DNA of 64,000 bases from Escherichia coli. GTDB taxonomy: Bacteria > Pseudomonadota > Gammaproteobacteria > Enterobacterales > Enterobacteriaceae. The first letter of the stretch is position 1; the number at the start of each line of letters is the position of its first letter. Of this stretch, positions 14,277 to 35,118 are shown piece after piece. Both the position numbers and the translations under genes were made by a program. The stretch lies in the NCBI RefSeq assembly GCF_036507355.1, contig NZ_AP027877.1, one strand, 5' to 3'. The notes below the pieces were generated by a model, which worked only from the letters and a program-made list of their open reading frames with translations, had not been told where the DNA came from and made no database searches.

Positions 14277-15140
14277 ATGAAACAACACCAATCGGCGGAT
14301 AATTCTCAGGGCCAGCTTTACATTGTACCGACGCCAATCGGCAATCTGGCGGATATCACCCAGCGTGCGTTAGAGGTATTACAGGCCGTTGATCTGATTG
14401 CCGCCGAGGATACTCGTCACACCGGTTTATTGCTGCAACATTTTGGGATTAATGCCCGGTTGTTTGCGCTGCACGACCATAACGAACAACAAAAAGCCGA
14501 AACGCTGCTGGCGAAGCTGCAAGAGGGGCAAAACATTGCGCTGGTTTCCGATGCCGGAACGCCGCTAATTAACGATCCTGGCTACCATCTGGTGCGTACC
14601 TGCCGTGAAGCGGGGATTCGTGTGGTGCCGCTACCCGGACCGTGTGCTGCTATCACTGCGTTAAGCGCCGCGGGTTTACCCTCTGACCGTTTCTGTTACG
14701 AAGGCTTTTTACCTGCCAAATCAAAAGGCCGCCGTGATGCGCTAAAAGCCATTGAAGCGGAGCCACGCACGCTGATTTTTTATGAATCTACCCACCGTCT
14801 GTTAGATAGCCTGGAAGATATCGTTGCGGTATTAGGCGAATCCCGCTACGTGGTTCTGGCGCGTGAGCTGACCAAAACCTGGGAAACCATTCACGGCGCG
14901 CCCGTTGGCGAGCTGCTGGCGTGGGTAAAAGAAGATGAAAACCGTCGCAAAGGCGAAATGGTGCTGATTGTCGAAGGCCATAAAGCGCAGGAAGATGACC
15001 TGCCTGCTGATGCCCTGCGCACGCTGGCTCTGTTGCAGGCAGAACTGCCGCTGAAAAAAGCGGCGGCGCTGGCAGCAGAAATTCACGGCGTGAAGAAAAA
15101 TGCGCTGTATAAGTATGCGCTGGAGCAGCAGGGAGAGTGA
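14277..15140 (+). CDS. rsmI: 16S rRNA 2'-O-ribose C1402 methyltransferase RsmI (YraL)
   Basis: 287-aa ORF; recognised as RsmI; divergent from lpoA. Confidence 0.88.
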
Positions 15141-15151
15141 TATCTCTCCGT

Positions 15152-15177
15152 GGCCCCGTTTGAAGAACCCAGGGGCC
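15152..15177. terminator. Hairpin between convergent rsmI and the antitoxin gene
   Basis: Stem ggcccc/ggggcc with a 14-nt loop, lying in the 42-bp gap between the two stop codons. Confidence 0.4.
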
Positions 15178-15182
15178 GCCTG

Positions 15183-15485
15183 CTAAACAATTAGTCTTTT
15201 TAGTGAGCCGAACAGATCGATGCCGATAGCATTTGCATAGCTAAAAACAACATCTAATGTTGGTGAACTTTCTCCTTTTTCAAATTTACTCACCGCTTGT
15301 CGGGTAACACCAAGTTGCTTCGCCACGGCAGTTTGGCTCAGATTGAGGGCTTTGCGTTTTTCCACGAGTTGGGAAAGAACCGCTTTGCGTTGTACAACAA
15401 CATCAAGAGCATTAGCGGTTGCTTCGTCCTTAAGTAATTCTGTTTTCACGTCTTCCCAGTGATGTAACTCGTTATTTTTCTTCAT
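15183..15485 (-). CDS. XRE-family helix-turn-helix protein, putative HigA-like antitoxin
   Basis: 100-aa ORF with HTH signature LSQTAVAKQLGVTRQAVSKFEKGE; 23 bp downstream of the toxin-like gene on the same strand. Confidence 0.7.
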   Translation of the reverse strand: MKKNNELHHWEDVKTELLKDEATANALDVVVQRKAVLSQLVEKRKALNLSQTAVAKQLGVTRQAVSKFEKGESSPTLDVVFSYANAIGIDLFGSLKRLIV

Positions 15486-15508: not shown

Positions 15509-15868
15509 TTAGTTTGTCGAAAGTAAGGCCTTATAACGTGCTAAACCTAACTCGATGTTGGCTTTAGGCGTTTTGTTCGTTTTTTTAGCAAAGATATGTG
15601 TGATGACCCATAGCCCTTGATGAAAGTGAAAATAAAAACCCCTTAACCAATGGCTCTGACTATGTGTTTTAATTTCATACATATCCCCTTGAACTTTTTC
15701 GGTATTCACCAGGGAAGAGCAGGGACCTAACTCTTCGAAATCGTCAATAGCAGCAATGAATTCCGCTCGATCGATTGCACTAAGATCAAACAATTCCTTT
15801 CTGGCCACACTTAACAGCATGACTGGAAAATTTTTATCACGTTTTTTGTTAGTCTGATTTTTCACCAT
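15509..15868 (-). CDS. Gp49-like RelE/ParE-superfamily (HigB-like) toxin
   Basis: C-terminal segment FYFHFHQGLWVITHIFAKKTNKTPKANIELGLARY resembles the conserved Gp49-like toxin core as recalled. Start is ambiguous: the ORF extends to 15961 (150 aa); I favour the M32 start at 15868 (119 aa). Confidence 0.6.
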   Translation of the reverse strand: MVKNQTNKKRDKNFPVMLLSVARKELFDLSAIDRAEFIAAIDDFEELGPCSSLVNTEKVQGDMYEIKTHSQSHWLRGFYFHFHQGLWVITHIFAKKTNKTPKANIELGLARYKALLSTN

Positions 15869-15991
15869 CTTTTTGTCAACCTTTAGGTTTACATTGTGAT
15901 GACATAATAACGGAGGACGTTCATACTGAACCGGAACGAAGTGCTCAAAACTCATGAGCACTTTTCTTATTTTTCCGGGCTAAGGGGGATG

Positions 15992-16759
15992 TTAACGACG
16001 ACACATCTCATCAATCACGCATGTGAAATGGTTATGCAGCCATAAAAACGAAGCCGGGATAGCGGTGGAGACTTTAGCCGTGAGAAAACGTTCTGTCGCA
16101 TCCTGCTTTCCTTCGCCAGTCACCAGTAACAAAACTTCGCGGGCAGTGAGAATATCTTTCAAACCTAAGGTGATCCCCCGGGTAACGGGGCGACCTGCGG
16201 TTTTTAACATCTCATGTTGCTGTGTTCTGGCATCAAGTTGGCTGATATGGCAGGCCGGTTGCAGGCTTTCTCCCGGTTCGTTCAGCCCCAGATGACCGTT
16301 TTTCCCCAGCCCAAGCATGCACAAATCGATACCACCTTTGAGCGCAATCAGGTTCGTTACCCGCTCACACTCTGTCTCGTTAATATCTTCAGAGCGAAAG
16401 CTGATGAACTGGTCTTCACGTAGCCCCAGCGGCTGTACGATATGTTGTTGAAGGAAGGTTTCGCAAGTGCCGGGCAGAGTTAATGGCAGATCCACCCATT
16501 CATCGAGTTTGACGACGGTGAGCTGGCTGACATCAACGTGCTGCTGGTGGATTTTTTCTACCAGATAATGATACGTCAGTAATGGCGTGGCTCCGGTCGC
16601 CAGGCAAATCACGGCATCCGGTTTGCTACGGATCACGGCCAATAAATATTCGCTGGCACGTTCACTTAACGCCGTATAGTTTTCAACTTGCTGAAGGGTT
16701 TGCACAGGATGAAATTCCTTAAGTAAAGGGGCACCGCCAGACGCAGTGCCTCGTTCCAT
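15992..16759 (-). CDS. agaI: Putative galactosamine-6-phosphate deaminase/isomerase AgaI
   Basis: 255-aa ORF; NagB-like; last gene of the agaS-kbaY-agaBCDI operon. Confidence 0.85.
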   Translation of the reverse strand: MERGTASGGAPLLKEFHPVQTLQQVENYTALSERASEYLLAVIRSKPDAVICLATGATPLLTYHYLVEKIHQQHVDVSQLTVVKLDEWVDLPLTLPGTCETFLQQHIVQPLGLREDQFISFRSEDINETECERVTNLIALKGGIDLCMLGLGKNGHLGLNEPGESLQPACHISQLDARTQQHEMLKTAGRPVTRGITLGLKDILTAREVLLLVTGEGKQDATERFLTAKVSTAIPASFLWLHNHFTCVIDEMCRR

Positions 16760-17551
16760 TTACAAAATGCCGAATGCGGAACAAACAATAGAGAGCACAA
16801 AAGTCACGCCGATTAACAGCACCGGATGCGCTTTTTTCACCCGCAGGAAGTAATACATCAGCAGGGTGTAGGCCATCGGTAAAATGTTCGGGAAGACTTT
16901 ATCGAAGAAATCCTGTTGCAGCGCGACGCTGTGGGTACTGTCGATGGCAAACGATGTCACCACGTTAATATGCACATACGAAGCGATCAGCCCGCCGATT
17001 ACCGTGATCCCGAGGATGGTTGCCGAACGGGCAATCATCTGCGAGTTCTCTCGCACTTTATCGATCGCCTTCACGCCGACTGAATAACCAACGTGGGTCC
17101 AGCTGACGCGCAGGAAAAAGATAAGCAGGTAAACGGCGAAAAATAGAATCGGCCCCAGCAGGTTTCCCTGGCTGGCAAATGATGAGCAAATTCCCGCCAT
17201 AATCGGCAACAAAGTAAACCAGAAAATCGCATCGCCAATCCCGGCGATTGGGCCAAACAGTGCCACTTTGAGGCCTTTAATGGTGTCGCGGTTTTCTCCT
17301 TTTTCTTCCATCGAAATTAATAACCCCATCAGGAATCCGACCAGATTCGGGTGGGTATTAATAAATTCGAGGTTATCTTTCATCGCTGCGCTTAGGCCCG
17401 GTTTGTCATCCTTATAAATCTTTTTTAGGATCGGCAACATCGCCCAGGTAAAACCGCCCGCTTGCATCCTTTCGTAGTTAAAGCTCGCTTGCAGCAGCGA
17501 CGAACGAAAGCCCAGACGGGTGATATCTTTTTTACTGATTTCAGATCCCAT
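16760..17551 (-). CDS. agaD: PTS galactosamine-specific EIID component AgaD
   Basis: ORF 16760..17698; start placed at MGSEISKKDITRLGF (263 aa). Confidence 0.85.
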   Translation of the reverse strand: MGSEISKKDITRLGFRSSLLQASFNYERMQAGGFTWAMLPILKKIYKDDKPGLSAAMKDNLEFINTHPNLVGFLMGLLISMEEKGENRDTIKGLKVALFGPIAGIGDAIFWFTLLPIMAGICSSFASQGNLLGPILFFAVYLLIFFLRVSWTHVGYSVGVKAIDKVRENSQMIARSATILGITVIGGLIASYVHINVVTSFAIDSTHSVALQQDFFDKVFPNILPMAYTLLMYYFLRVKKAHPVLLIGVTFVLSIVCSAFGIL

Positions 17552-18344
17552 TGCTGTAGTCCTCTTCTTCATTTTTACTGGCAACGGGCTGCGGTTGCGC
17601 TTGCTGCCGGGATTTCGCATTGAAAAACTCATACACCGCAAAGCCTGCGCCCAGTACGGCAACCGGCAACAGGTTGCTGACCTGGATGTAGCAAACAAAC
17701 AGGAAACCGGCGATCAGGTAAGGGATATATTGCGCTTTGAACATTACGCGCAGCAGCAAGCCAAAACCAACGGCAGGCAGAATACCGCCAGCCACTTCAA
17801 AGCCGTGGGTCAACCAGGCGGGCATCGCTTTCACCAGCGCCTGCATCGCCCCTTGTGCCAGGTAAGTACAGAGGAAAGCAATCACCGCATATGCTGAAGC
17901 GACGATGAGCATCGTTGTCCAGTTAAGCCGGGAAAATGCTGCCGTATCCGCCTCTTTCGCGCATTTATCGGCTTTGGTCATAAATAATGAGAAAGCGGAA
18001 TAGAAGAACAGAATGACGTACTGCATTAACAAACTAAACGGTAGGCCAAGACCAATTGCCGTTTTGGCATCAACGCCCGTAGACCATGCAATGACGGTGG
18101 TCATCAGACCCGCCATAATAGGGTTGGGCGGCTGAACACCACCTGCAGGGGTTAATCCGGCGAAAGCCAACTCTGTCAGACCACCGGTAATTAAGCCAGT
18201 CTGAATATCACCGAGAATAGCGCCAGTTAGGGTACAAACGATTATCGGGCGGAATAAAAATAAGGCTTCCAGCCAAAAATCAATCCCCAGAACGAAAACT
18301 AACGCCGCCAGGGATAATCCCTGAAGTAGGGTTATTTCATGCAT
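17541..18344 (-). CDS. agaC: PTS galactosamine-specific EIIC component AgaC
   Basis: 267-aa hydrophobic ORF; mannose-family IIC. Confidence 0.85.
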   Translation of the reverse strand: MHEITLLQGLSLAALVFVLGIDFWLEALFLFRPIIVCTLTGAILGDIQTGLITGGLTELAFAGLTPAGGVQPPNPIMAGLMTTVIAWSTGVDAKTAIGLGLPFSLLMQYVILFFYSAFSLFMTKADKCAKEADTAAFSRLNWTTMLIVASAYAVIAFLCTYLAQGAMQALVKAMPAWLTHGFEVAGGILPAVGFGLLLRVMFKAQYIPYLIAGFLFVCYIQVSNLLPVAVLGAGFAVYEFFNAKSRQQAQPQPVASKNEEEDYSNGI

Positions 18345-18382
18345 TTTTATTACCTCAAACCAATATTAAGGCGATTTTAGAT

Positions 18383-18859
18383 TTAGTCAGGGATTTGTTC
18401 TTTTTGATCGCCAGGGACGTCCTGAATGAAAACATTCACGCCACGTTGTTTAATAAAACGTAAGTCCGTGAGATCCTGGTCATCGACATAAACTTTACTG
18501 CTGATTTGCTTTTTCCCTTCCGAGAAATGCATATTGCCGACGTTGACCTCTTTCAGGTCAATGCCACCTTCTACCAATTTACGTACCGTTTGTGGCGTAC
18601 GGCAAATCAGGAAGATCTTCTGATGCGGTGCAGCTTTGCCGATGACGTTAATGGTTTTTTCGATAGTAAAGAAACGAATGCCAAAGCCGTAGGTTTCTGC
18701 GGTAATACCCATTAATTTCTGTTGAATATCATCGTTAGCGACAACATCATCCACGACTACCAGCAGATTCGCACCGATGGTGGATGTCCAGGTCACGCCA
18801 ACCTGACCGTGAACCAGACGGTTATCAATACGGGTTAAGAGAATATTTGGACTGCTCAT
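18383..18859 (-). CDS. agaB: PTS galactosamine-specific EIIB component AgaB
   Basis: 158-aa ORF; mannose-family IIB N-terminus NILLTRIDNRLVHGQ. Confidence 0.85.
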   Translation of the reverse strand: MSSPNILLTRIDNRLVHGQVGVTWTSTIGANLLVVVDDVVANDDIQQKLMGITAETYGFGIRFFTIEKTINVIGKAAPHQKIFLICRTPQTVRKLVEGGIDLKEVNVGNMHFSEGKKQISSKVYVDDQDLTDLRFIKQRGVNVFIQDVPGDQKEQIPD

Positions 18860-19025
18860 TGTGTAATCCTCACCATAAAGTTGAATAATATAATTTTTTT
18901 AAATATATTATTGTTGCGATATTGTACTGATGTATTTATTAAGGTTTAGTCATCTCCTTTTCCATTAAGGCACTCCCCGATATTAATCGGGAAGTACATT
19001 GGGATAAATCATAAAAAACTAATGA

Positions 19026-19898
<873 letters not shown>

Positions 19899-21053
19899 TT
19901 ATGCCTGCCACGGATGAATGATTACGCCTTGCACCACGCGGTTAACGGTGCCACTGGCTGATGGGGTATCCGGCGTATTGCCCATGTGCAGCGACTGCAT
20001 CAGTGCAAACGTCTGGGCGTACATCAGGAAGCAAAATGCCTGCTCAACGTCGATAAAGTGACGTGACGGTGGCAGGATGATATGTGGACCGGCAGCGACG
20101 ATGTCGCTGCTTTCCGCGGCGATGGCGATTACACGCATTGCCTGGTTGTCACGGCGAAGTTCAGCCAGCAGATCAAGATCATACTGACGGGTGTAAGGGT
20201 GGCTGGAGACAAATACCACCACCAGCGTTTCGTCATCGACCAGCGATTTTGGTCCATGACGGAATCCGGTTGGAGAATCATAAAAGGCCGCCAGTTTACC
20301 CGCCGTCAGTTCCAGCACTTTCAGCGCCGACTCGCGTGCTGCGCCCTGTAAGCCACCGCTGCCGAGATAAACGATCCGTTTCCACGGTGCGTAACCAAAC
20401 ACACCTTCGCTGAAATCGCCCAGTGAGGTCAGTATCGCCTGGCAACGATCCGCCACGTCGCGGAAGGTTTGGCTGTTGATCGTCTCAGGTGCGAAAACCG
20501 CGAGGCAGCTGGCCATCATGGTGGTAATGCTGCTGGTCATCGCAAAGCCGCGATCGTGCGTTTCTGCGGGCATCAGCAGGGCAAACGCGTTATCGCTGTT
20601 GATCGCGTTTTGGTAAAGAGCGCCCGCTTCGTTGCAGGTGATCGGCAGGTGATAGCATTCCGGTACAAATTGATTTGCCAGTTCCACGGCTGCGACGCTT
20701 TCCGGGCTGTTGCCGGATCGACCGAAGGAGATCAACAGCAGCGGATGGGCTGGGTTCAGGTAGTCCATCGGATTAGTGACCAGATCGGTGGTCGGTACGG
20801 CGCTGAAGTTTTTACCGGTATGGCTGGCGAGCCACGGCGCGATGATGTCACCGATAAATGCTGAGGTTCCGGCTCCGGTCAGGATGATCCGCAGATTCTC
20901 TTTGCGCAGTAACGGTTCAAGGAAGTTATTAAGCGCGGAACGTAGCGCGTCGATGTTGGTGAGTGAACGGATCCATGCGCGAGGCTGTTGGCGGATCTCT
21001 TCTTCAGTCCATGTACCGGTTGCGGCGGCAGCAGGGGTGTAATTTTCTGGCAT
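19899..21053 (-). CDS. agaS: SIS-domain sugar isomerase/deaminase AgaS
   Basis: 384-aa ORF; recognised as AgaS. Confidence 0.85.
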   Translation of the reverse strand: MPENYTPAAAATGTWTEEEIRQQPRAWIRSLTNIDALRSALNNFLEPLLRKENLRIILTGAGTSAFIGDIIAPWLASHTGKNFSAVPTTDLVTNPMDYLNPAHPLLLISFGRSGNSPESVAAVELANQFVPECYHLPITCNEAGALYQNAINSDNAFALLMPAETHDRGFAMTSSITTMMASCLAVFAPETINSQTFRDVADRCQAILTSLGDFSEGVFGYAPWKRIVYLGSGGLQGAARESALKVLELTAGKLAAFYDSPTGFRHGPKSLVDDETLVVVFVSSHPYTRQYDLDLLAELRRDNQAMRVIAIAAESSDIVAAGPHIILPPSRHFIDVEQAFCFLMYAQTFALMQSLHMGNTPDTPSASGTVNRVVQGVIIHPWQA

Positions 21054-21084
21054 AACTCAATCCTTAGTCTGATGAACTTGACGT

Positions 21085-21260
21085 CGGGCGTTGTCGCTTT
21101 CGCTTACCTTTCGTTTCATTTCACTTGGTGATGTCTTTCGTTGATTAAAATCTATAGAAAAGAAACCGAAAGTTCAATGGAGAAAAAGGAAATAAAACGA
21201 AATCTGTGATCATTGAAAGAAAAGACAAGGGAAGATTAAAGAATTGCGTAATGACGTCGC
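21085..21260 (-). promoter_or_regulatory. agaS promoter region with AgaR operator-like CTTTCG/CGAAAG repeats
   Basis: Clustered motifs ctttcgcttacctttcgtttcatttcac, gtctttcgttga, aaccgaaagttc and aaaacgaaatc upstream of agaS. Confidence 0.45.
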
Positions 21261-21273
21261 TATGTTCACCGAT

Positions 21274-21327
21274 TGCCGGATGCGGCGTATCGTAGGTCGG
21301 ATAAGACGCGTTAGCGTCGCATCCGAC
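21274..21327. repeat. REP element between agaA and agaS
   Basis: gccggatgcggcgtatcgtaggtcggataagacgcgttagcgtcgcatccgaca. Confidence 0.7.
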
Positions 21328-21403
21328 ACCGCTGCACAGATCAAAACGAAAGAAAAAGAAAGGCCTTACGGGAGAAGTGAAGGCCCAATAATGGAGCAAA
21401 CCA

Positions 21404-22537
21404 TCAAAACGAAGCTAATTGACCCTGAATCCAGATTTGTTGCACATGCAGCCCGCTATCCAGCGCAACGACGCTGGCGCGTTTGCCCGGTTTAAGCGAT
21501 CCCAGAACACCATCAACACCCAGCATTCGCGCCGGATGCAGCGATGCCATATGAATGGCTTCCGCAGGCGTTACGCCCGTCAACTCGACCATATTGCGCA
21601 CTGCCGCATCAACAGACAGCGTACTGCCCGCCAGCCCACCGGACGCGGTACGGACAACGCCACCGTGCATCTGCACTTCTTCGCCACATAACGTATAGCG
21701 ACCATCCGGCATCCCGGCTGCCTGCATCGCGTCGGTGATCAGCACGATTCTCTCTTTCGCACAGCAACAACACAGCGACATCGCCGCCGGATGCACATGA
21801 TGACCATCGGCTATCAGTTCCAGCCAGGCGCGCTTGTCCGTTAATCCCGCGCCAACCATTCCCGGTTCGCGGTGATGTAAACCTGTCATCCCGTTATAGC
21901 AATGCACCAGGCCGTCGGCACCAGCATCAAACGCGGCGCGAGTTTGTTGCCAGGTCGCCGCGCTATGCCCCAGCATCACTCGTACGTTTTGCTGTTTAAG
22001 ATGGCGTATGGCCTGCAATGCCCCCTCTTTTTCCGGTGCCAGCGCTACCACGCGTAAGGTGTGCTGAGAAACGGCAATCAATTGATCCAGCTCGGCAATT
22101 TCCAGCTCGCGGAACAGCTCTGGGGGATGCGCGCCTTTATTCTGCGGCGTGAAGTACGGTCCTTCGAGATAACTCCCCAGCACTTGCGCACCAGGTCCGC
22201 CGCGTTGGCAACGTTGAGCAATACGTTTCAGCGCCGCATGAATGGTATTAAGCGGCGCGGTTACGGTGGTCGGTAACCAACTGCCGACACCTTCGCGTGC
22301 CTTGTGCATTGCCAGCTTGTCGAGTACATCCGGCGCGTCATCCATTACATCAACGCCCGCACCACCGTGTACATGGGTGTCGATGTAAGCAGGGCAGAGC
22401 AGTTCCGCATCGCGTTCAGTCACGCCCACTGGAATCGGTTCGATTGCTGCGATGACACCGTCAGCAATACGCAACTGATGGTCATCGAGCCATCCCTCTT
22501 CAGTCAGCAGCCTTCTGGCGCGCAGAACGTGTGTCAT
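21404..22537 (-). CDS. agaA: N-acetylgalactosamine-6-phosphate deacetylase AgaA, full length
   Basis: ORF 21404..22558; start placed at MTHVLRAR (377 aa); metal-dependent amidohydrolase. K-12 has this gene truncated. Confidence 0.85.
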   Translation of the reverse strand: MTHVLRARRLLTEEGWLDDHQLRIADGVIAAIEPIPVGVTERDAELLCPAYIDTHVHGGAGVDVMDDAPDVLDKLAMHKAREGVGSWLPTTVTAPLNTIHAALKRIAQRCQRGGPGAQVLGSYLEGPYFTPQNKGAHPPELFRELEIAELDQLIAVSQHTLRVVALAPEKEGALQAIRHLKQQNVRVMLGHSAATWQQTRAAFDAGADGLVHCYNGMTGLHHREPGMVGAGLTDKRAWLELIADGHHVHPAAMSLCCCCAKERIVLITDAMQAAGMPDGRYTLCGEEVQMHGGVVRTASGGLAGSTLSVDAAVRNMVELTGVTPAEAIHMASLHPARMLGVDGVLGSLKPGKRASVVALDSGLHVQQIWIQGQLASF

Positions 22538-22968
22538 ATCCCTTCCTCGACCGGACATTCTTCATGGCAGCGGTCTAACTCGTCCACCAGACTGGTCAGC
22601 CCACGATGTCCACACTCCAGCGCCTGTACACGGAATTCTTCACCGCTTAACCCTTCGCGCTCCAGCACCATCTCCAGTAGCAGTTGCAAATTGGTGCCGG
22701 TGATCACTTCACAGCCCGGTTTTTGCATCGCCAGCGTTGAAGCTACGCGAAACGGCGTGCCGCCCAGCAAATCCGTCAGAAAAACAATGCCGTCTTCACA
22801 ATCCAGTTGGGCGATGGCCTCTTCAAGCTGCGATGTAAGCAGCGCGGTGCTTGAGGTTTCCGGAAAATCGATGGCGATAAACTGCGATTGCTCACCGAGG
22901 ATTTGCTTCATTGCTTTTTCCATGCCACTGGCAAACCCGCCATGCCCTGTCAAAATAATACTTAACAT
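22534..22968 (-). CDS. agaF: PTS N-acetylgalactosamine-specific EIIA component AgaF
   Basis: 144-aa ORF; mannose-family IIA N-terminus LSIILTGHGGFASG. Gene absent from K-12. Confidence 0.8.
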   Translation of the reverse strand: MLSIILTGHGGFASGMEKAMKQILGEQSQFIAIDFPETSSTALLTSQLEEAIAQLDCEDGIVFLTDLLGGTPFRVASTLAMQKPGCEVITGTNLQLLLEMVLEREGLSGEEFRVQALECGHRGLTSLVDELDRCHEECPVEEGI

Positions 22969-22985
22969 CTAATACCTCATTGTAT

Positions 22986-23870
22986 TTAAAGGAAATGGCA
23001 GAATTTACCGACGATGCCGAGAACCACGGTAACTGCAATCAGACGCAGCGGACTCCAGCCGCGGCGTACCAACCAAAACATGGTCAGGGTGTAGACCAAC
23101 GGTAAGAAGGCAGGCATCAGTTTGTCGATAACATCAGCCTGTAACTTAACCACTGCGTCGCCCGCTGTGATTTCCAGCGTGGTGCTTAAACGAACATAGG
23201 TTGCCACCAGCGCACCGATTACCGTCATCCCAACGATAGACGCAGCATGGCCGACTTTTTTGGTATTTGCTTTAATGAGTGGAATCGCCGCCACGCCCAT
23301 GCGGTAAGCATAATGCGCCAGACCAAAACGCAGCCCCAGGTGTACCACGTTGAACAGCACAATAAAGACGACTGCGCCAAGAATGGAGCCTTGCAATGCC
23401 AGACTGGCTCCAATCCCGCCACAAATCGGCAGTAGCGTTAGCCAGAACATTGCATCGCCAATCCCGCCGAGCGGCGCACCGACGGCAATTTTGGTGCTCT
23501 GAATACTGTTAACGTCCTGCTTAGAACGCTCCATCGCAAGGATAATGCCGATAACAAATGTCACCAGAAACGGATGGGTATTGAAGAAACCCATATGCCC
23601 CTTCATGGCGCGCGCCAGGTCGCGTTTATTAGTGTGGATCTTTTTCAGAGCAGGCAGCAGACCGTACAACCAGCCAGAAGCCTGCATACGTTCGTAGTTA
23701 AAAGACGCTTGTAACAGCATGGAACGCCAGGCGACGCGGTTGATATCTTTTTTCGTCAGCTCCGCGCCAATGCTCTGATCTTCATACACGTTTTCATTGA
23801 CGCCAGTCAGCAATGTTTCTTCGTTTTCACTGACGTTCGGCAGGGTGGTTTGATTAGATGCCATCTTCAA
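22986..23870 (-). CDS. agaE: PTS N-acetylgalactosamine-specific EIID component AgaE
   Basis: 294-aa ORF; paralogous to AgaD. Gene absent from K-12. Confidence 0.8.
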   Translation of the reverse strand: MKMASNQTTLPNVSENEETLLTGVNENVYEDQSIGAELTKKDINRVAWRSMLLQASFNYERMQASGWLYGLLPALKKIHTNKRDLARAMKGHMGFFNTHPFLVTFVIGIILAMERSKQDVNSIQSTKIAVGAPLGGIGDAMFWLTLLPICGGIGASLALQGSILGAVVFIVLFNVVHLGLRFGLAHYAYRMGVAAIPLIKANTKKVGHAASIVGMTVIGALVATYVRLSTTLEITAGDAVVKLQADVIDKLMPAFLPLVYTLTMFWLVRRGWSPLRLIAVTVVLGIVGKFCHFL

Positions 23871-24633
23871 ATTCCTCTTTCTGTGCCGCAGGTTGAGTCG
23901 GTTCAGGAGATTTACGCAGCAGATCGATCAGCGCCATCGCCAGCGCGGCGGCAGCAATAGCCAGCACCGGTAACTTGAGCCAGGCTGCGGCAACAAAGCC
24001 CAGGATGAAGTAGGGGATGTAGACGTTTTTCATCATGATTTTCAGCAGCACGGCAAAACCGATTGCTGGCATGATGCCGCCCGCGACGCCGAGGCCGTCG
24101 ATTAATCGTTGCGGCAGGACATCAATGATGGTTTTTGCATGTTCCGCGCCGAAGTAGATAGGCAGGAAAGCGCAGAGAAAATAGAAAGTGCCGAGTGCCA
24201 GCAGTGCCAGATAGTTTACGCGTTCAATGCCGCGAGTATCGGCGTTCTCCGCCATCCGGTCGCAGCGAGACATCACGCCAGACATCACCGAGAACAGGAA
24301 GGTAATCCCCATCTGTACTGCGACAGCGAAAGGTACGGCGACACCGACTGCGACATCGGGTTTCACGCCAGTAGTAATGGCAAACGCCGTGCCGACGATA
24401 GTACCGATAATCACGTTAGGCGGCTGTGCGCCCGCCAGCGGGGCCAGCCCCATCCACACCAGTTCCAGCGTACCGCCGGTTAAAATACCGGTATGCAGAT
24501 CGCCAAGTACCAGCCCGACTAACGGGCCGAGGACCACCGGGCGGTGCATATGGGTTAAGCCGTTAAACATATCCAGGCCAGCGATAAAGGCGATAATGCC
24601 CAACGCGAATGCCTGCAACAGACTGATTTCCAT
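23854..24633 (-). CDS. agaW: PTS N-acetylgalactosamine-specific EIIC component AgaW
   Basis: 259-aa hydrophobic ORF; paralogous to AgaC. Confidence 0.8.
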   Translation of the reverse strand: MEISLLQAFALGIIAFIAGLDMFNGLTHMHRPVVLGPLVGLVLGDLHTGILTGGTLELVWMGLAPLAGAQPPNVIIGTIVGTAFAITTGVKPDVAVGVAVPFAVAVQMGITFLFSVMSGVMSRCDRMAENADTRGIERVNYLALLALGTFYFLCAFLPIYFGAEHAKTIIDVLPQRLIDGLGVAGGIMPAIGFAVLLKIMMKNVYIPYFILGFVAAAWLKLPVLAIAAAALAMALIDLLRKSPEPTQPAAQKEEFEDGI

Positions 24634-24643
24634 GATGAATCCC

Positions 24644-25117
24644 TCAAAGTAATTTAAAGAGGTCCACAGCAGGCTCTGTCGGGACGCCCTGAACGAAGCA
24701 TTCCACCCCAGCGGCTTTCAGGTCGTTAAATGCTGCGATATCGCCCGCATCCACAGAAACCGTTTTGGCGATTTGTTGCTTGCCATTGGCGTAGTGCATA
24801 TTGCCAACGTTAATGCGATTCACCGGAACGCCACCTTTCACCAGCGTCAGGAAATCGGCGGGTGTTTTACAAACCAGCAGGATTTTCTGTCGATCGGCGG
24901 CGCGATGAATGTTGTCGATAACTTTTTGCAGCGTCCAGAAACGTACGGCGATCCCTTCTGCCAGTACCATTTCCATCAGGTTTTGTTGTACCGGATCTTC
25001 GGCAACCTCATCGTTGGCTACCAGCACCAGATTTGCCCCCGCAAATCCGACCCACTGAACGCCGACCTGACCGTGAATCAAGCGTTCATCAATCCGGCTT
25101 AAAACAATATTTGGCAT
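24644..25117 (-). CDS. agaV: PTS N-acetylgalactosamine-specific EIIB component AgaV
   Basis: ORF 24644..25153; start placed at MPNIVLSRIDERLIHGQ (157 aa). Confidence 0.82.
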   Translation of the reverse strand: MPNIVLSRIDERLIHGQVGVQWVGFAGANLVLVANDEVAEDPVQQNLMEMVLAEGIAVRFWTLQKVIDNIHRAADRQKILLVCKTPADFLTLVKGGVPVNRINVGNMHYANGKQQIAKTVSVDAGDIAAFNDLKAAGVECFVQGVPTEPAVDLFKLL

Positions 25118-25139
25118 AGCGTGTTCCTCTTTGTTTTGC

Positions 25140-26420
25140 TTATTGGCCTTCACAGGCTGTGTGGTACTGCGCCAGGATGTCCTGAATATGGTTGATAATG
25201 AGTTCCCGTGGCGTTGGCTGCAGCTCGCCGGAGCGAACTTTCACGTACTGCAGCGGCAGATACTGGCTGATCAGCGGCAGCGGAATTGGTGAATCCGCCA
25301 GATTACGTACCAGATGAGCGAAAGCGTCATCAATCTGGCTGTCCGGCCAGTAATAGCGCACGCGATCCGAGTAGCTATAACCACGCGCCAGACGACGCGC
25401 GTTGCCGTCACCGTGGTAGTGGCTTTGCCAGTATTCCGGGCGGTCGAGCATCACGTTTTCCAGCACCTGACGCAGACCAGAACAGGCTTTTGCTGGCACC
25501 AGTTCTTCTTCAATCGCTGCCAGAGAGAACAGAGCTTCACGCAGGGCGAAGGTCAGCGCCGGGCCAACTTTCAGAATGGCAAAGTGGTCAATCACCAGCT
25601 GGCGCAGCGATTGCGGCGTTTGATAATCGGTAGAGTGCGCTTCGAAAATCAGCGTTTCGTAGTTTTCGACCATCTGGCTTAAGGCGGTCGCTTTGGCGGG
25701 CTGATAATCAATAACGTTGGTGTGATCGAATTCGACGCCGGGTTGAACCACCAGGGCAATGATGCGTGGCTAGATGGCATTCAAACCTTGCTTTTCAAAG
25801 GCGTGACGATGGGCTTCCAGCGTGGCGCGGGCGGCATCCGGCGTGGTGACCGCCAGCTCGCTTAAGGTTTCATGCGCGCCGCCAGGTACCGGCACTTCGG
25901 TACCAATGACATACTCCAAATCGGCTTCGCCAAAGTGTTCGCGACAGGTTTCTTCCGCCACTTTCGCCAGACGGGCGGCGCGTTCAGCCACGATGTCATC
26001 AGTTAAGGGAATCGGATCGTCCTGACAGGACATGCTGCAATCAAGGTGAATTTTTTTGAATCCCGCCGCGACGTAGCTTTTAATCAAATCATCGGCATTG
26101 GTCATTGCCTGAGCGGCCGGCAGGTTTTGCCAGCGGTTTGGCCCCAGATGGTCACCACCCAGAATCAACGCATCCTGCGGGAAATTCAACGAGTCGGCGA
26201 GCTGACAAACAAAGCCGCGAAAATCGGCGGGCGTCATTCCGGTATAACCGCCGAACTGGTCTACCTGATTGGAGGTTGCTTCAATCAGTAACGGCGTTTG
26301 GTTTGCACTGGCGTAGCGGATTGCAGCCTCCAGCACCAGCGGATGTGCGGAACAAACAGCATAAATTCCATTTGTTTTGCCCGCTTTGTGCTGTCTCACC
26401 ATTTCTGTCAGATGTTTCAC
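25140..26420 (-). pseudogene. kbaZ: kbaZ (agaZ) tagatose-bisphosphate aldolase non-catalytic subunit, interrupted by an in-frame amber codon
   Basis: 1281 bp equals 427 codons, the full KbaZ length. One TAG (complement of 25770..25772) sits where K-12 has Trp (...QGLNAI*PRIIALV...); both flanks are in frame and collinear with KbaZ. Confidence 0.8.
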
Positions 26421-26668
26421 TTTCCTCTCCAGTTCAGATTACTGCGATATTAATCTTTCGTTTTGTTTCACTTGATACTGCGTCATGGTGAGATAAAAAT
26501 AAAACGAAAGATAATAGTTTTCTGATCTGATTCACAAAAGAAACATAATGAAAGCCACTGAAACGAGAGTAGCTTGCGTCAATGGGCAAGGTGGGCTTGC
26601 ATTTGCTTAATAGAAAGGCGTTAATAGGCAAAACGAAATGAAACGAAAGTTTTACGAAAGGACTTACT
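26421..26668. promoter_or_regulatory. kbaZ/agaR divergent promoter region with AgaR operator-like repeats
   Basis: Repeated ctttcgttttgtttcac, aaaacgaaag, gaaacgaaag and tacgaaagg motifs. Confidence 0.5.
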
Positions 26669-27478
26669 ATGAGTAATACCGACGCTTCAGGTGAGAAGCG
26701 AGTGACAGGCACCAGCGAGCGACGAGAACAGATCATTCAGCGTCTGCGACAGCAAGGGAGTGTGCAGGTTAACGATCTGTCGGCATTGTATGGCGTATCT
26801 ACCGTGACGATCCGCAACGATCTGGCGTTTCTGGAAAAGCAGGGGATCGCTGTGCGTGCCTATGGTGGCGCGTTGATCTGCGATAGCACAACGCCGTCAG
26901 TCGAGCCATCAGTGGAAGATAAAAGCGCGCTGAACACCGCAATGAAACGCAGCGTTGCGAAAGCTGCCGTTGAGTTGATTCAGCCAGGTCATCGGGTGAT
27001 CCTCGATTCCGGGACCACCACTTTTGAGATTGCTCGTCTGATGCGTAAGCACACTGACGTAATTGCGATGACCAACGGTATGAACGTGGCTAATGCGTTG
27101 CTGGAAGCGGAAGGCGTTGAGCTGCTGATGACCGGCGGGCATTTGCGCCGTCAGTCGCAATCTTTTTACGGCGATCAGGCTGAACAATCGCTGCAAAATT
27201 ACCACTTCGATATGCTGTTTCTTGGTGTAGATGCGATTGATCTGGAGCGTGGCGTCAGCACGCATAATGAAGATGAAGCCCGTTTAAACCGCCGGATGTG
27301 CGAAGTTGCGGAACGGATCATCGTAGTCACCGATTCCAGTAAGTTCAACCGCTCCAGTTTACATAAGATCATTGATACTCAACGTATCGACATGATCATT
27401 GTTGATGAAGGCATTCCTGCGGATAGTCTGGAAGGACTGCGAAAGGCTGGGGTTGAAGTGATTCTGGTCGGGGAGTGA
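26669..27478 (+). CDS. agaR: DeoR-family repressor of the aga regulon AgaR
   Basis: 269-aa ORF with N-terminal HTH and DeoR C-terminal domain; recognised as AgaR. Confidence 0.88.
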
Positions 27479-27532: not shown

Positions 27533-27997
27533 TCAATGGTTTTCTTCTGTCTCTTGGGTGAGGCTTTCCCAGTCGGCAGGAGGATGTCCTCTTTTTAACA
27601 TTTTACTGAATACGGTATAGGCATCTGTTTTTTTACCGTAGGTGCGCAGCGTGTTTTCATCGTTCATCCATCCCAGAATGATGACTTTCTCTTTTTCACT
27701 GTAACGAAAGAAGAGACGATAGCGACCAGCACCAAATTTTACCCGTGACCAGTCTTTATTTTTCCCAGAGCCTAACGACTTGCCATGACGGAATGCCGGT
27801 GATGATGGATTGACCGTGATATGCTCCTCAATCACTTTATGGACTACCGCCAATAACTTTGTGGCGGCTTTTCTCTGATAATTTTCAGGATCTTTTCCCT
27901 TTAATGTCTCGACTTCGGCAACTAAAGCGTCGTAGGTTTCCTGAAAACAGGGATGAGCATATAGCGCCCAACCATTAACCCTTTGTGGAAAATCCAT
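27533..27997 (-). CDS. yhaV: Type II toxin YhaV (ribosome-dependent mRNA interferase)
   Basis: 154-aa ORF recognised as YhaV; overlaps the prlF stop. Confidence 0.88.
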   Translation of the reverse strand: MDFPQRVNGWALYAHPCFQETYDALVAEVETLKGKDPENYQRKAATKLLAVVHKVIEEHITVNPSSPAFRHGKSLGSGKNKDWSRVKFGAGRYRLFFRYSEKEKVIILGWMNDENTLRTYGKKTDAYTVFSKMLKRGHPPADWESLTQETEENH

Positions 27998-28332
27998 TAT
28001 TCGTCGTCGCCAATCTCATCATCAATGTTGACGTCCATGCCAGCGACAAGTTTCTTTCCTTGTTGAATGTTGAATGGACGAGTTTTTTGCGGGTTGTTCT
28101 GGATATCTGCATCCAGAAAACGCAAAAATGCATTCATAGTATGATCCTCCTGTTCATCTCCCAGTCGGCACATAAATACTTGCCCACCAGGCAGAATTTC
28201 GTAATGAATGCTGTCCTGGCCTGGCTTCAGTTTTAAGGCCTCACGCACTGGCGCGGGGATAGTTGTTTGTCCGCGTATCGTGACCTTTGATTCAGTGGTC
28301 AGTACAGCGTGAGAGCGAGCATTAGCGGGCAT
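27997..28332 (-). CDS. prlF: Type II antitoxin PrlF (SohA), AbrB/SpoVT-type
   Basis: 111-aa ORF recognised as PrlF, with an acidic C-terminus; immediately upstream of yhaV. Confidence 0.88.
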   Translation of the reverse strand: MPANARSHAVLTTESKVTIRGQTTIPAPVREALKLKPGQDSIHYEILPGGQVFMCRLGDEQEDHTMNAFLRFLDADIQNNPQKTRPFNIQQGKKLVAGMDVNIDDEIGDDE

Positions 28333-28432
28333 GATTCACTGTCCTTTTACAGCCTGTTTTCTGCTCAAATTATAAGCTTGAACTAAGGTAATGCAAATGC
28401 ATTATTAATGGACGTGGGGGCTTTAAACAATA

Positions 28433-28458
28433 AAAACATGGCACTAAGGCCATGTTTT
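28433..28458 (-). terminator. Rho-independent terminator of garD
   Basis: 10-bp stem aaaacatggc/gccatgtttt with a 6-nt loop, 23 bp past the garD stop. Confidence 0.6.
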
Positions 28459-28480: not shown

Positions 28481-30052
28481 TCAGGTCACCGGTGCTGGGT
28501 TAAACACCGCCAGCTGGTTATGCAGTCCCCATTGATCCGAGAAGGTTTTCTTCTTCCCGCTGGCGACGTCGAGAATAAAGTGGAACAACTTCCAGCCCAC
28601 CTCTTCAATGGTTTCTTCGCCGGTGGCGATAGTGCCCGCGTTAATATCCATTAAATCAAACCAGCGGTTCGCCAGCTCGGTGCGGGTCGCCATTTTAATG
28701 ACGGGTACCGCCATCAGGCCGTACGGCGTACCACGACCGGTCGTAAACACTTGCACGGTGATACCCGAAGCCACCTGTTGCGTGCCACAGACAAAATCGC
28801 TGGCTGGCGTCGCGGCGTAAATTAATCCGCGTTTAGTCGGGCGTTGACCGGGCGACAGCACTTCAACAATTGCGCTTTTACCCGATTTAGCAATGGAGCC
28901 GAGCGCTTTCTCCACTACATTTGCCAGACCGCCTTTCTTGTTGCCCGGCGAAGGGTTGGCGCTGCGGTCGGTTTTTCCCATATTGAGATAGTTATCGTAC
29001 CACTCCATCTCCGCCAGCAGCCGTTTGCCGACCTCTTCGTTCACTGCGCGTGGTGTCAGCAGATGGATCGCGTCACGCACTTCCGTGACTTCTGAGAACA
29101 TCACCGTTGCGCCGCAGCGCACCAGTAGATCAGACGCATACCCAACCGCCGGGTTTGCCGTTACGCCAGAAAAGGCATCGCTGCCACCGCACTGCATGCC
29201 GACAACCAGTTCTGAAGCCGGACAGGTTTCTCGCTGACGTTGATTCAGTTTTTGTAGATGGCGTTCGGCGACCTGCAAAATATCCTCGACCATGGACTGA
29301 AAACCGACATGCTTTTCATCCTGCAAACTGACAATGCTGGCGCTTTCTACTGGAATAGCTTGCACATCATCCGTTCCAGTCAGCAGGCGCTCAGGCTGCA
29401 ACTTTTCACAACCCAGGCCAATCACCATTACTTCGCCGCCAAAGTTAGGGTTCAGCGAAATATTGTGAATGGTACGAATAGGCACAGCTGCCGCCGGTGC
29501 GTTAATCGCCACGCCACAACCGTACAAATGATTCAGCCCCACCACGCCATCGACGTTCGGGTATTTCGGTAGCAGATCGCGTTCAATGATTTTTACTACA
29601 TAGTCCACCACGCCTGCCACACAGTGGACGCTGGTGGTGATGCCGAGCAGGTTTTTGGTGCCCACGCTGCCATCGGCATTGCGATAGCCCTCAAAGGTGT
29701 ATCCTTCCAGCGGCGGTAAGGGTTCCGGGACTTTGGTTGCCAGTGGCAGCGTGTGTAACGGCGGCGCTTCCGGTAGTACAACCATTGATTCGTCGATCCA
29801 GCTTCCGCGTGGGATTGCACGCACGGCGTAACCAATCACTTCGCCATAACGAATAATTTCACCATTAGCCGGAATGTCCAGCAATGCGACTTTATGCCCC
29901 TGGGGAATATGTTCAATTAATTCCAGCCCATCCGGAAAACGCGTTCCTGCTTTCAGGCCATTATCATTAACAATAATTGCCACATTATCTGTGTCGTGAA
30001 CTTTTATATAAAACGCAGTTGGCGTTTCTTGTCTGATTTCGATGTTGGCCAT
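28481..30052 (-). CDS. garD: Galactarate dehydratase GarD
   Basis: 523-aa ORF; recognised as GarD; paralogous to UxaA at 62336..63823 in this window. Confidence 0.9.

Positions 30053-34741: not shown

Positions 34742-35118
<377 letters not shown>

Follow-up and report, generated by a model that had tools for sequence, protein, structure and literature searches.

Two toxin–antitoxin (TA) modules lie on either side of the aga/kba cluster of this Escherichia coli chromosome, and the first-pass annotation took their closeness to mark the neighbourhood as a hotspot for small addiction modules. Do the two pairs share a site-specific history or function, or are they neighbours by coincidence? We addressed this in the whole stretch of DNA presented, a window of 64 kb. 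Open reading frames and Pfam/NCBIfam searches bore out the annotated identities of both pairs (prlF–yhaV and a Gp49-like/XRE pair), their gene orders and positions, and their bracketing of the cluster. The distance of 12–13 kb given for them was likewise accurate: 11.6 kb separate the toxin open reading frame of the second pair from yhaV and the outer span is 13.15 kb, the cluster filling everything in between.

15992..27478 (no strand assigned): aga/kba cluster of 13 genes, agaI-D-C-B, kbaY, agaS, agaA, agaF-E-W-V, kbaZ and agaR

The prlF–yhaV pair is the K-12 system

The antitoxin-first pair is the already known, well-studied prlF–yhaV of K-12, in its usual and nearly fixed chromosomal position. 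The segment 27533..28332 consists of exactly two minus-strand open reading frames, and the elements that matter for their expression lie immediately upstream.

27997..28332, minus strand: prlF (sohA), AbrB/SpoVT-type antitoxin and autorepressor, 111 aa (open reading frame, PF15937, NF007429)
27533..27997, minus strand: yhaV, RelE-superfamily ribosome-dependent mRNA endonuclease toxin, 154 aa (open reading frame, PF11663)
28369..28397, minus strand: candidate sigma-70 promoter of prlF–yhaV, a 10/12 match to the consensus with putative function
28389..28404 (no strand assigned): palindrome TAATGCA-N2-TGCATTA, a perfect inverted repeat that overlaps the -35 box
28433..28458, minus strand: garD terminator hairpin and T-run, the upstream boundary of the prlF–yhaV insert

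The antitoxin gene comes first, and the prlF stop and yhaV start codons share one base (TAATG). In the Pfam profile search PrlF matched PF15937 (PrlF_antitoxin) with E=6e-42 and 142 bits (cut-off 32), and it scored 170 bits against the NCBIfam equivalog NF007429 (cut-off 125); YhaV matched PF11663 (Toxin_YhaV) over residues 12–150 of its 154 (E=6e-54, 182 bits, cut-off 35). As in annotated E. coli genomes, the flanking genes are agaR (26669..27478, plus strand) and garD (28481..30052, minus strand). PrlF is 100% identical to the K-12 MG1655 protein WP_001307405.1, the 148 bp upstream of prlF are identical to those of MG1655, promoter and palindrome included, and YhaV is identical to its K-12 counterpart at 151 of 154 positions (98%). 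The K-12 system also occupies the same agaR–garD locus with the same gene order and 1-nt overlap, so that the sole differences here are three conservative changes in the C-terminal tail of YhaV (T145S, R148Q and T153N).

Toxicity of YhaV and its neutralization by PrlF were demonstrated with the K-12 proteins (PMC7781912, as summarised there from Schmidt et al. 2007 and Choi et al. 2017), and YhaV is described as a ribosome-dependent, frame-dependent mRNase (PMC7781912; PMC11980606). Because PrlF is identical and YhaV differs at only three residues, the published mechanism can plausibly be carried over to the present pair. The N-terminal AbrB-type domain of PrlF would bind DNA, the PrlF2–YhaV4 complex would sit on the palindrome of its own promoter, as in the published system, and PrlF would neutralize YhaV; YhaV that is free would bind the ribosome and cut mRNA in a frame-dependent manner. 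The candidate promoter comprises a -35 box, TTTGCA (28397..28392), a 17-nt spacer and a -10 box, TATAAT (28374..28369). According to a review, the PrlF2–YhaV4 complex binds a palindromic site within the promoter that precedes prlF (PMC7781912); the inverted repeat at 28389..28404 is a candidate PrlF–YhaV operator, presumably the same one as published. Sequence searches returned no solved structure of either PrlF or YhaV.

The second pair is a rare HigBA-like module

Judged by its sequence, the second pair is a rare module of a Gp49/HigB-type toxin and an XRE antitoxin, a predicted new member of a known toxin superfamily. It lies between rsmI (14277..15140, plus strand) and agaI (15992..16759, minus strand), with the toxin gene first and the XRE antitoxin gene next.

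15509..15868, minus strand: predicted Gp49/HigB-like RelE-superfamily toxin, 119 aa from the ATG at 15868 (PF05973)
15183..15485, minus strand: predicted XRE-family HTH antitoxin, 100 aa (HTH_3), with a strong Shine-Dalgarno sequence, AGGAGA, 8 nt upstream
15870..15991, minus strand: upstream region of the toxin gene, 122 bp, with a hairpin at 15938..15964 and a promoter not confidently placed
15152..15177 (no strand assigned): GC-rich inverted repeat, GGCCCC...GGGGCC, in the gap where rsmI and the antitoxin gene converge

The toxin matched the Pfam family Gp49 (PF05973) with E=1e-20 and 74 bits (cut-off 23.9), profile positions 1–90 being fully matched, and Pfam placed an HTH_3 domain at residues 42–91 of the antitoxin (E=5e-16). 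The open frame of the toxin extends over 15509..15961 (150 aa), with the PF05973 domain beginning only at residue 55. Its homologues, of 110–135 aa, have their first residue at the position of Met32, which makes the ATG at 15868 the likely start, for a protein of 119 aa, and the annotated N-terminus probably spurious; a later Met at 15820 provides an alternative, leaving the start codon uncertain between 15868 and 15820. RefSeq/PGAP places the start at 15955 (148 aa; locus L002, 15369..15815), 29 codons upstream of the one supported here.

An AlphaFold (AF2) model of the toxin, built from 17 homologues, reached a pLDDT of 84.9 and has a RelE-type four-stranded sheet, two N-terminal helices and a long C-terminal helix (residues 102–118). 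Its best PDB matches in Foldseek were S. pneumoniae HigB (6af4/6af3) and M. tuberculosis HigB1 (7awk), followed by RelE (1wmi/2khe) and V. cholerae HigB2 (5jaa). S. pneumoniae HigBA (6AF3/6AF4) was structurally closest to the toxin model (E=6e-5, TM ∼0.62), and its antitoxin, HigA (6af3_B), was the best sequence match of the XRE protein, at near-full length (E=1.3e-8, residues 3–89). Both systems are toxin-first, with an antitoxin that has an N-terminal extension and a C-terminal HTH, although the two toxins are only ∼19% identical and the pneumococcal system comes from a Gram-positive source.

The second toxin shares PF05973, the RelE fold and the long C-terminal helix with M. tuberculosis HigB1 (HigB-TAC; 7AWK, 7NBU) and V. 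cholerae HigB2 (5JAA), and it also has equivalents of E66, R68, R77, F93, K95, K99 and K113. Among the 17 aligned homologues E65, R76, F93, K95 and K99 are invariant and K67 is present in at least 90%. With the alignment register around FAKK shifted by one residue by eye, these positions are the equivalents of HigB-TAC E66, R68, R77, F93, K95 and K99, most of which are required for toxicity (PMC9098466). K113 is found in the window toxin, whereas the equivalent of HigB-TAC R117 is not conserved. A further difference from HigB-TAC lies in gene content: that system has a SecB-like chaperone, whereas the present module has two genes, with no SecB-like chaperone gene after the antitoxin and the convergent rsmI following after 42 bp, which does not fit a TAC system. 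PADLOC gave no defence-system match, only a weak NsnC hit and generic HTH hits. By analogy with HigBA of S. pneumoniae or HigBA2 of V. cholerae, the toxin would act as an A-site mRNase, and the N-terminal 40 residues of the antitoxin would wrap the toxin while the C-terminal HTH would repress the operon.

The toxin-then-XRE order recurred in nine of nine related loci from at least five genera (Pseudocitrobacter-like genomes, Yersinia, Pantoea, Klebsiella sp. and Sodalis), a taxonomic picture that is thin, the representative-genome scan having given only five loci. The Yersinia homologues (L009, L014 and L016) have a toxin identity of about 62–64%. Yersinia copies (L009, L010 and L011) sit between deaD and a yhbW-like luciferase gene, at the place that mtr holds in E. 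coli; broadly, the chromosomal neighbourhood is shared with E. coli. In a survey of E. coli, 11 groups of Gp49 toxins were distinguished, some confined to one sequence type (PMC10790755). A rare, lineage-restricted module fits these groups; the site and history of the second pair are not described there.

The two modules had been called unrelated. This is correct for the antitoxins (AbrB/SpoVT-type versus XRE-HTH) and for gene order, but not for the toxins, both of which fall in the RelE/ParE (BECR-fold) superfamily of ribosome-dependent mRNases, where YhaV has been placed (PMC11980606) and where membership of the second toxin rests on the fold search too. Because the antitoxin folds differ, cross-talk between PrlF–YhaV and the second pair would be unlikely.

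We considered whether the second pair might be a remnant, in decay or without toxicity, for instance a regulator whose partner is inactive. The E. coli toxin stops ∼10 residues short of the ends of its nearest homologues and so is without their C-terminal tail, and a consensus scan of the upstream region on the coding strand recognised no promoter or operator, only the agaI-proximal hairpin. Moreover, of three Gp49-type HigB toxins of M. tuberculosis that were assayed, two proved non-toxic (PMC9098466). Against this, both open reading frames are intact in all four carriers examined (the window and three further genomes), which differ by at most 1.8% in DNA and by no more than one residue change per protein; dN/dS is below 0.1 in the comparison described below, the counterparts of the HigB-TAC catalytic residues are conserved and the model has the RelE fold with good confidence. 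A remnant is on balance improbable. Downstream of the antitoxin gene, the inverted repeat at 15152..15177 is a possible two-way terminator.

The second pair looks like an old resident of the rsmI–agaI spacer

To place the module among the alleles of its site, we used complete RefSeq E. coli genomes, as in the survey of the agaR–garD junction below. Four states were found at the rsmI–agaI junction. In 3522 of 5426 genomes it is occupied by the yraHIJK fimbrial operon, and an empty 49-bp spacer is found in about 1700–1830 genomes, or roughly one third (19 of 60 evenly sampled rows, and by subtraction), including ST131, ABU 83972 and ATCC 25922. An MBL-fold hydrolase with a LysR regulator is present in 64 genomes and the Gp49-like/XRE pair in 12 of 5426 (∼0.2%). 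No alternative TA module was found at this junction in the 5426 complete genomes, so that one state of the four is a TA module. In the TA, empty and MBL/LysR alleles the 3′ ends of rsmI and agaI are the same, and the differences span exactly the stretch from one stop codon to the other, whereas the breakpoints of the yra allele fall inside the last codons of rsmI and agaI.

The MBL/LysR allele retains both ends of the TA module. In strain GF4-3 (locus L003, 5700..5764) the 65 bp that follow rsmI are 100% identical to 15141..15205 of the window, a relic that takes in the 15152..15177 repeat and the final 22 nt of the antitoxin gene. At the other end (L003, 8001..8122) the 122 bp upstream of the toxin gene are kept at 91% identity, ending 2 nt before its start codon. 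Survival of these ends indicates that the hydrolase/regulator pair overwrote the core of a pre-existing TA module.

The closest copies outside E. coli come from Pseudocitrobacter-like genomes (metagenomic contigs and a Pseudocitrobacter MAG), in which the toxin is 80–84% and the antitoxin 85–86% identical and the pair adjoins rsmI–lpoA. The site next to rsmI is the same in L006, L007 and L013, the first two of which also have agaI on the opposite flank. Compared with a Pseudocitrobacter-like copy, the antitoxin gene has a dS of ∼1.5 and the flanking lpoA a dS of 1.43; dN is 0.09–0.11 and dN/dS below 0.1, dS having been obtained for the antitoxin gene and that of the toxin gene being inestimable.

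These observations bear on whether the pair is instead a recent, horizontally acquired cassette that entered the empty rsmI–agaI spacer in a few lineages. Its rarity (0.2%) would fit such an origin, as would its low G+C (0.40 versus about 0.52), its breakpoints exactly at both stop codons relative to the empty allele, and a relative carried on an ICE in Pantoea. The low G+C and the Pantoea relative do indicate that the family can move horizontally. However, among 72,556 plasmids no copy of the second toxin exceeded 39% identity, and only two matches, both partial and ∼36% identical, came from phage records. At silent sites, the syntenic Pseudocitrobacter-like copy has diverged to the same extent as the core genes beside it, differences of up to 1.8% separate the carriers compared, and the 65-bp and 122-bp relics in the 64-genome MBL/LysR allele show that the module predates that allele. 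We therefore regard a recent acquisition as unlikely. Because it is syntenic in Pseudocitrobacter-like genomes, as diverged as its flanks and survived by its ends in the MBL/LysR allele, the second pair looks like an old resident under purifying selection that is gone from most E. coli (99.8% having lost or replaced it); its age we infer from one outgroup lineage.

A fuller history of the site can be put forward only tentatively. The rsmI–agaI spacer may be a long-lived, multi-allelic replacement site at which the HigBA-like module was ancestral, in common with Pseudocitrobacter-like relatives, and was then successively overwritten by a fimbrial operon, by the hydrolase/regulator pair or by nothing. 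If true, this would be a rare traceable example of the loss of a chromosomal TA module.

The agaR–garD junction carries prlF–yhaV or is empty

With a query that included the last 79 bases of agaR, we detected the complete prlF–yhaV locus at this junction in 5119 (94%) of the 5426 complete E. coli genomes. This leaves at most 307 of the 5426 without a complete locus, and a spread sample put the empty native site at ∼270. Among the absences examined, E2348/69 has an empty site, with another short spacer that contains its own hairpin between agaR and garD; UTI89 matches the query only over its 76-nt agaR end; and one strain retains a prlF fragment alone. Across the 5426 complete genomes this junction showed prlF–yhaV or the empty state, and no other TA family. 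YhaV has been reported as common in all sequence types except ST95 and ST12 (PMC10790755), a scarcity that agrees with the empty agaR–garD alleles found here.

The empty allele of E2348/69 (L018, 2091..2966) has an agaR of 274 codons, compared with 269 where prlF–yhaV is present. The breakpoint falls within the last agaR codons, and presence or absence of the TA module thereby alters the C terminus of AgaR.

A concatenated agaR+garD query had suggested 636 genomes without prlF–yhaV. We discarded this figure, since more than half of the matches were a relic agaR–garD′ copy elsewhere in the genome. In strain DC71 (L022, 900..8650) this is a decayed second copy of the neighbourhood in a malX/enterotoxin island, made up of rsmI′, an enterotoxin gene, a malY-like gene, malX, kbaZ′, agaR and garD′, with prlF–yhaV absent between agaR and garD′. 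Its agaR is of the long E2348/69 type, and we estimate that several hundred genomes carry such a copy (5 of 60 sampled rows).

The intervening aga/kba cluster

In this strain kbaZ (25140..26420, minus strand) has an in-frame amber codon, W217* (TGG to TAG), at 25770..25772, which is absent in three other E. coli genomes, and the gene is probably a pseudogene. Two other carriers of the second pair also have a broken cluster: ECNB21-M121 has ISKpn26 in agaD, and 14EC033 has IS1 in agaC together with a stop in agaA. Damage to the cluster was found in three of the four carriers examined.

The agaI gene differs in another way. It is 5.5–8% diverged from seven other E. coli alleles, whereas the neighbouring genes are 98–99% identical. 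In a search with agaI, 5255 of 5299 matching genomes fell in the 90–95% band, and the window allele was absent among the matches listed. With dN/dS of ∼0.1 and dS of ∼0.2, these comparisons suggest an intact allele imported from a diverged lineage. Elsewhere in the 64 kb, the RNase P RNA gene rnpB (34742..35118) was the sole Rfam family at gathering score.

Neither junction is a TA hotspot

A survey of TA content at both junctions had been proposed as a check on the hotspot, and across 5426 genomes it gives that reading no support: each junction holds one kind of TA module and no alternative, agaR–garD existing in two states and rsmI–agaI in four, of which one is TA. A neighbourhood subject to repeated integration of small addiction modules would account for two TA operons within 13.15 kb, for the polymorphism of rsmI–agaI, which with four alleles is real, and for the lower G+C of both inserts compared with their flanks. 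It does not account for the nature of the other alleles, since those at rsmI–agaI are a fimbrial operon, a hydrolase/regulator pair or nothing, and agaR–garD has either prlF–yhaV or an empty site. Nor did we find integration machinery: no tRNA was detected in the 64 kb (Rfam), no integrase is annotated in the matching loci and no flanking direct repeats were seen. Instead, one junction allele differs from another by replacement of the whole spacer, and the breakpoints fall at the 3′ ends of the flanking genes or within them.

The proximity of the modules is also no greater than chance would give, because 12–25 type II modules placed at random in 5 Mb would be expected to form 0.35–1.6 pairs within 13.15 kb per genome, the lower bound of 12 being the K-12 figure (PMC11980606). 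The two modules occur together in only about 0.2% of genomes. The three carrier genomes examined all have prlF–yhaV as well, as expected for a gene with a frequency of 94%. We consider a true hotspot highly improbable.

Chromosomal TA loci reduce large deletions, and the modules lie exactly at the two borders of the aga cluster, as they would if they acted jointly as anti-deletion clamps that stabilize it; we reject this reading as scarcely credible, since both modules are present in 12 of 5426 genomes while almost all keep the cluster, an aga gene is broken in three of four carriers examined, and K-12, which has prlF–yhaV, still bears the agaW–agaA deletion.

The arrangement is best described as two independent type II TA operons, each on the minus strand in a gap between convergent housekeeping or metabolic genes, that would have come to flank aga by chance. 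In conclusion, our data very probably reflect two separate insertions brought together by coincidence, with no joint function and no TA hotspot, the second pair being an old HigBA-like occupant of its site.

For TA biology the flagged locus itself has little consequence, as it is the textbook prlF–yhaV in its usual place. The analysis does provide, as by-products, a quantitative answer from 5426 genomes, namely that neither junction is a TA hotspot, and a likely mis-called start codon in the RefSeq annotation of the second toxin. It also brings to light a rare Gp49/HigB–XRE module whose site history can be traced, and which, as a small case study, could show how chromosomal TA modules disappear.
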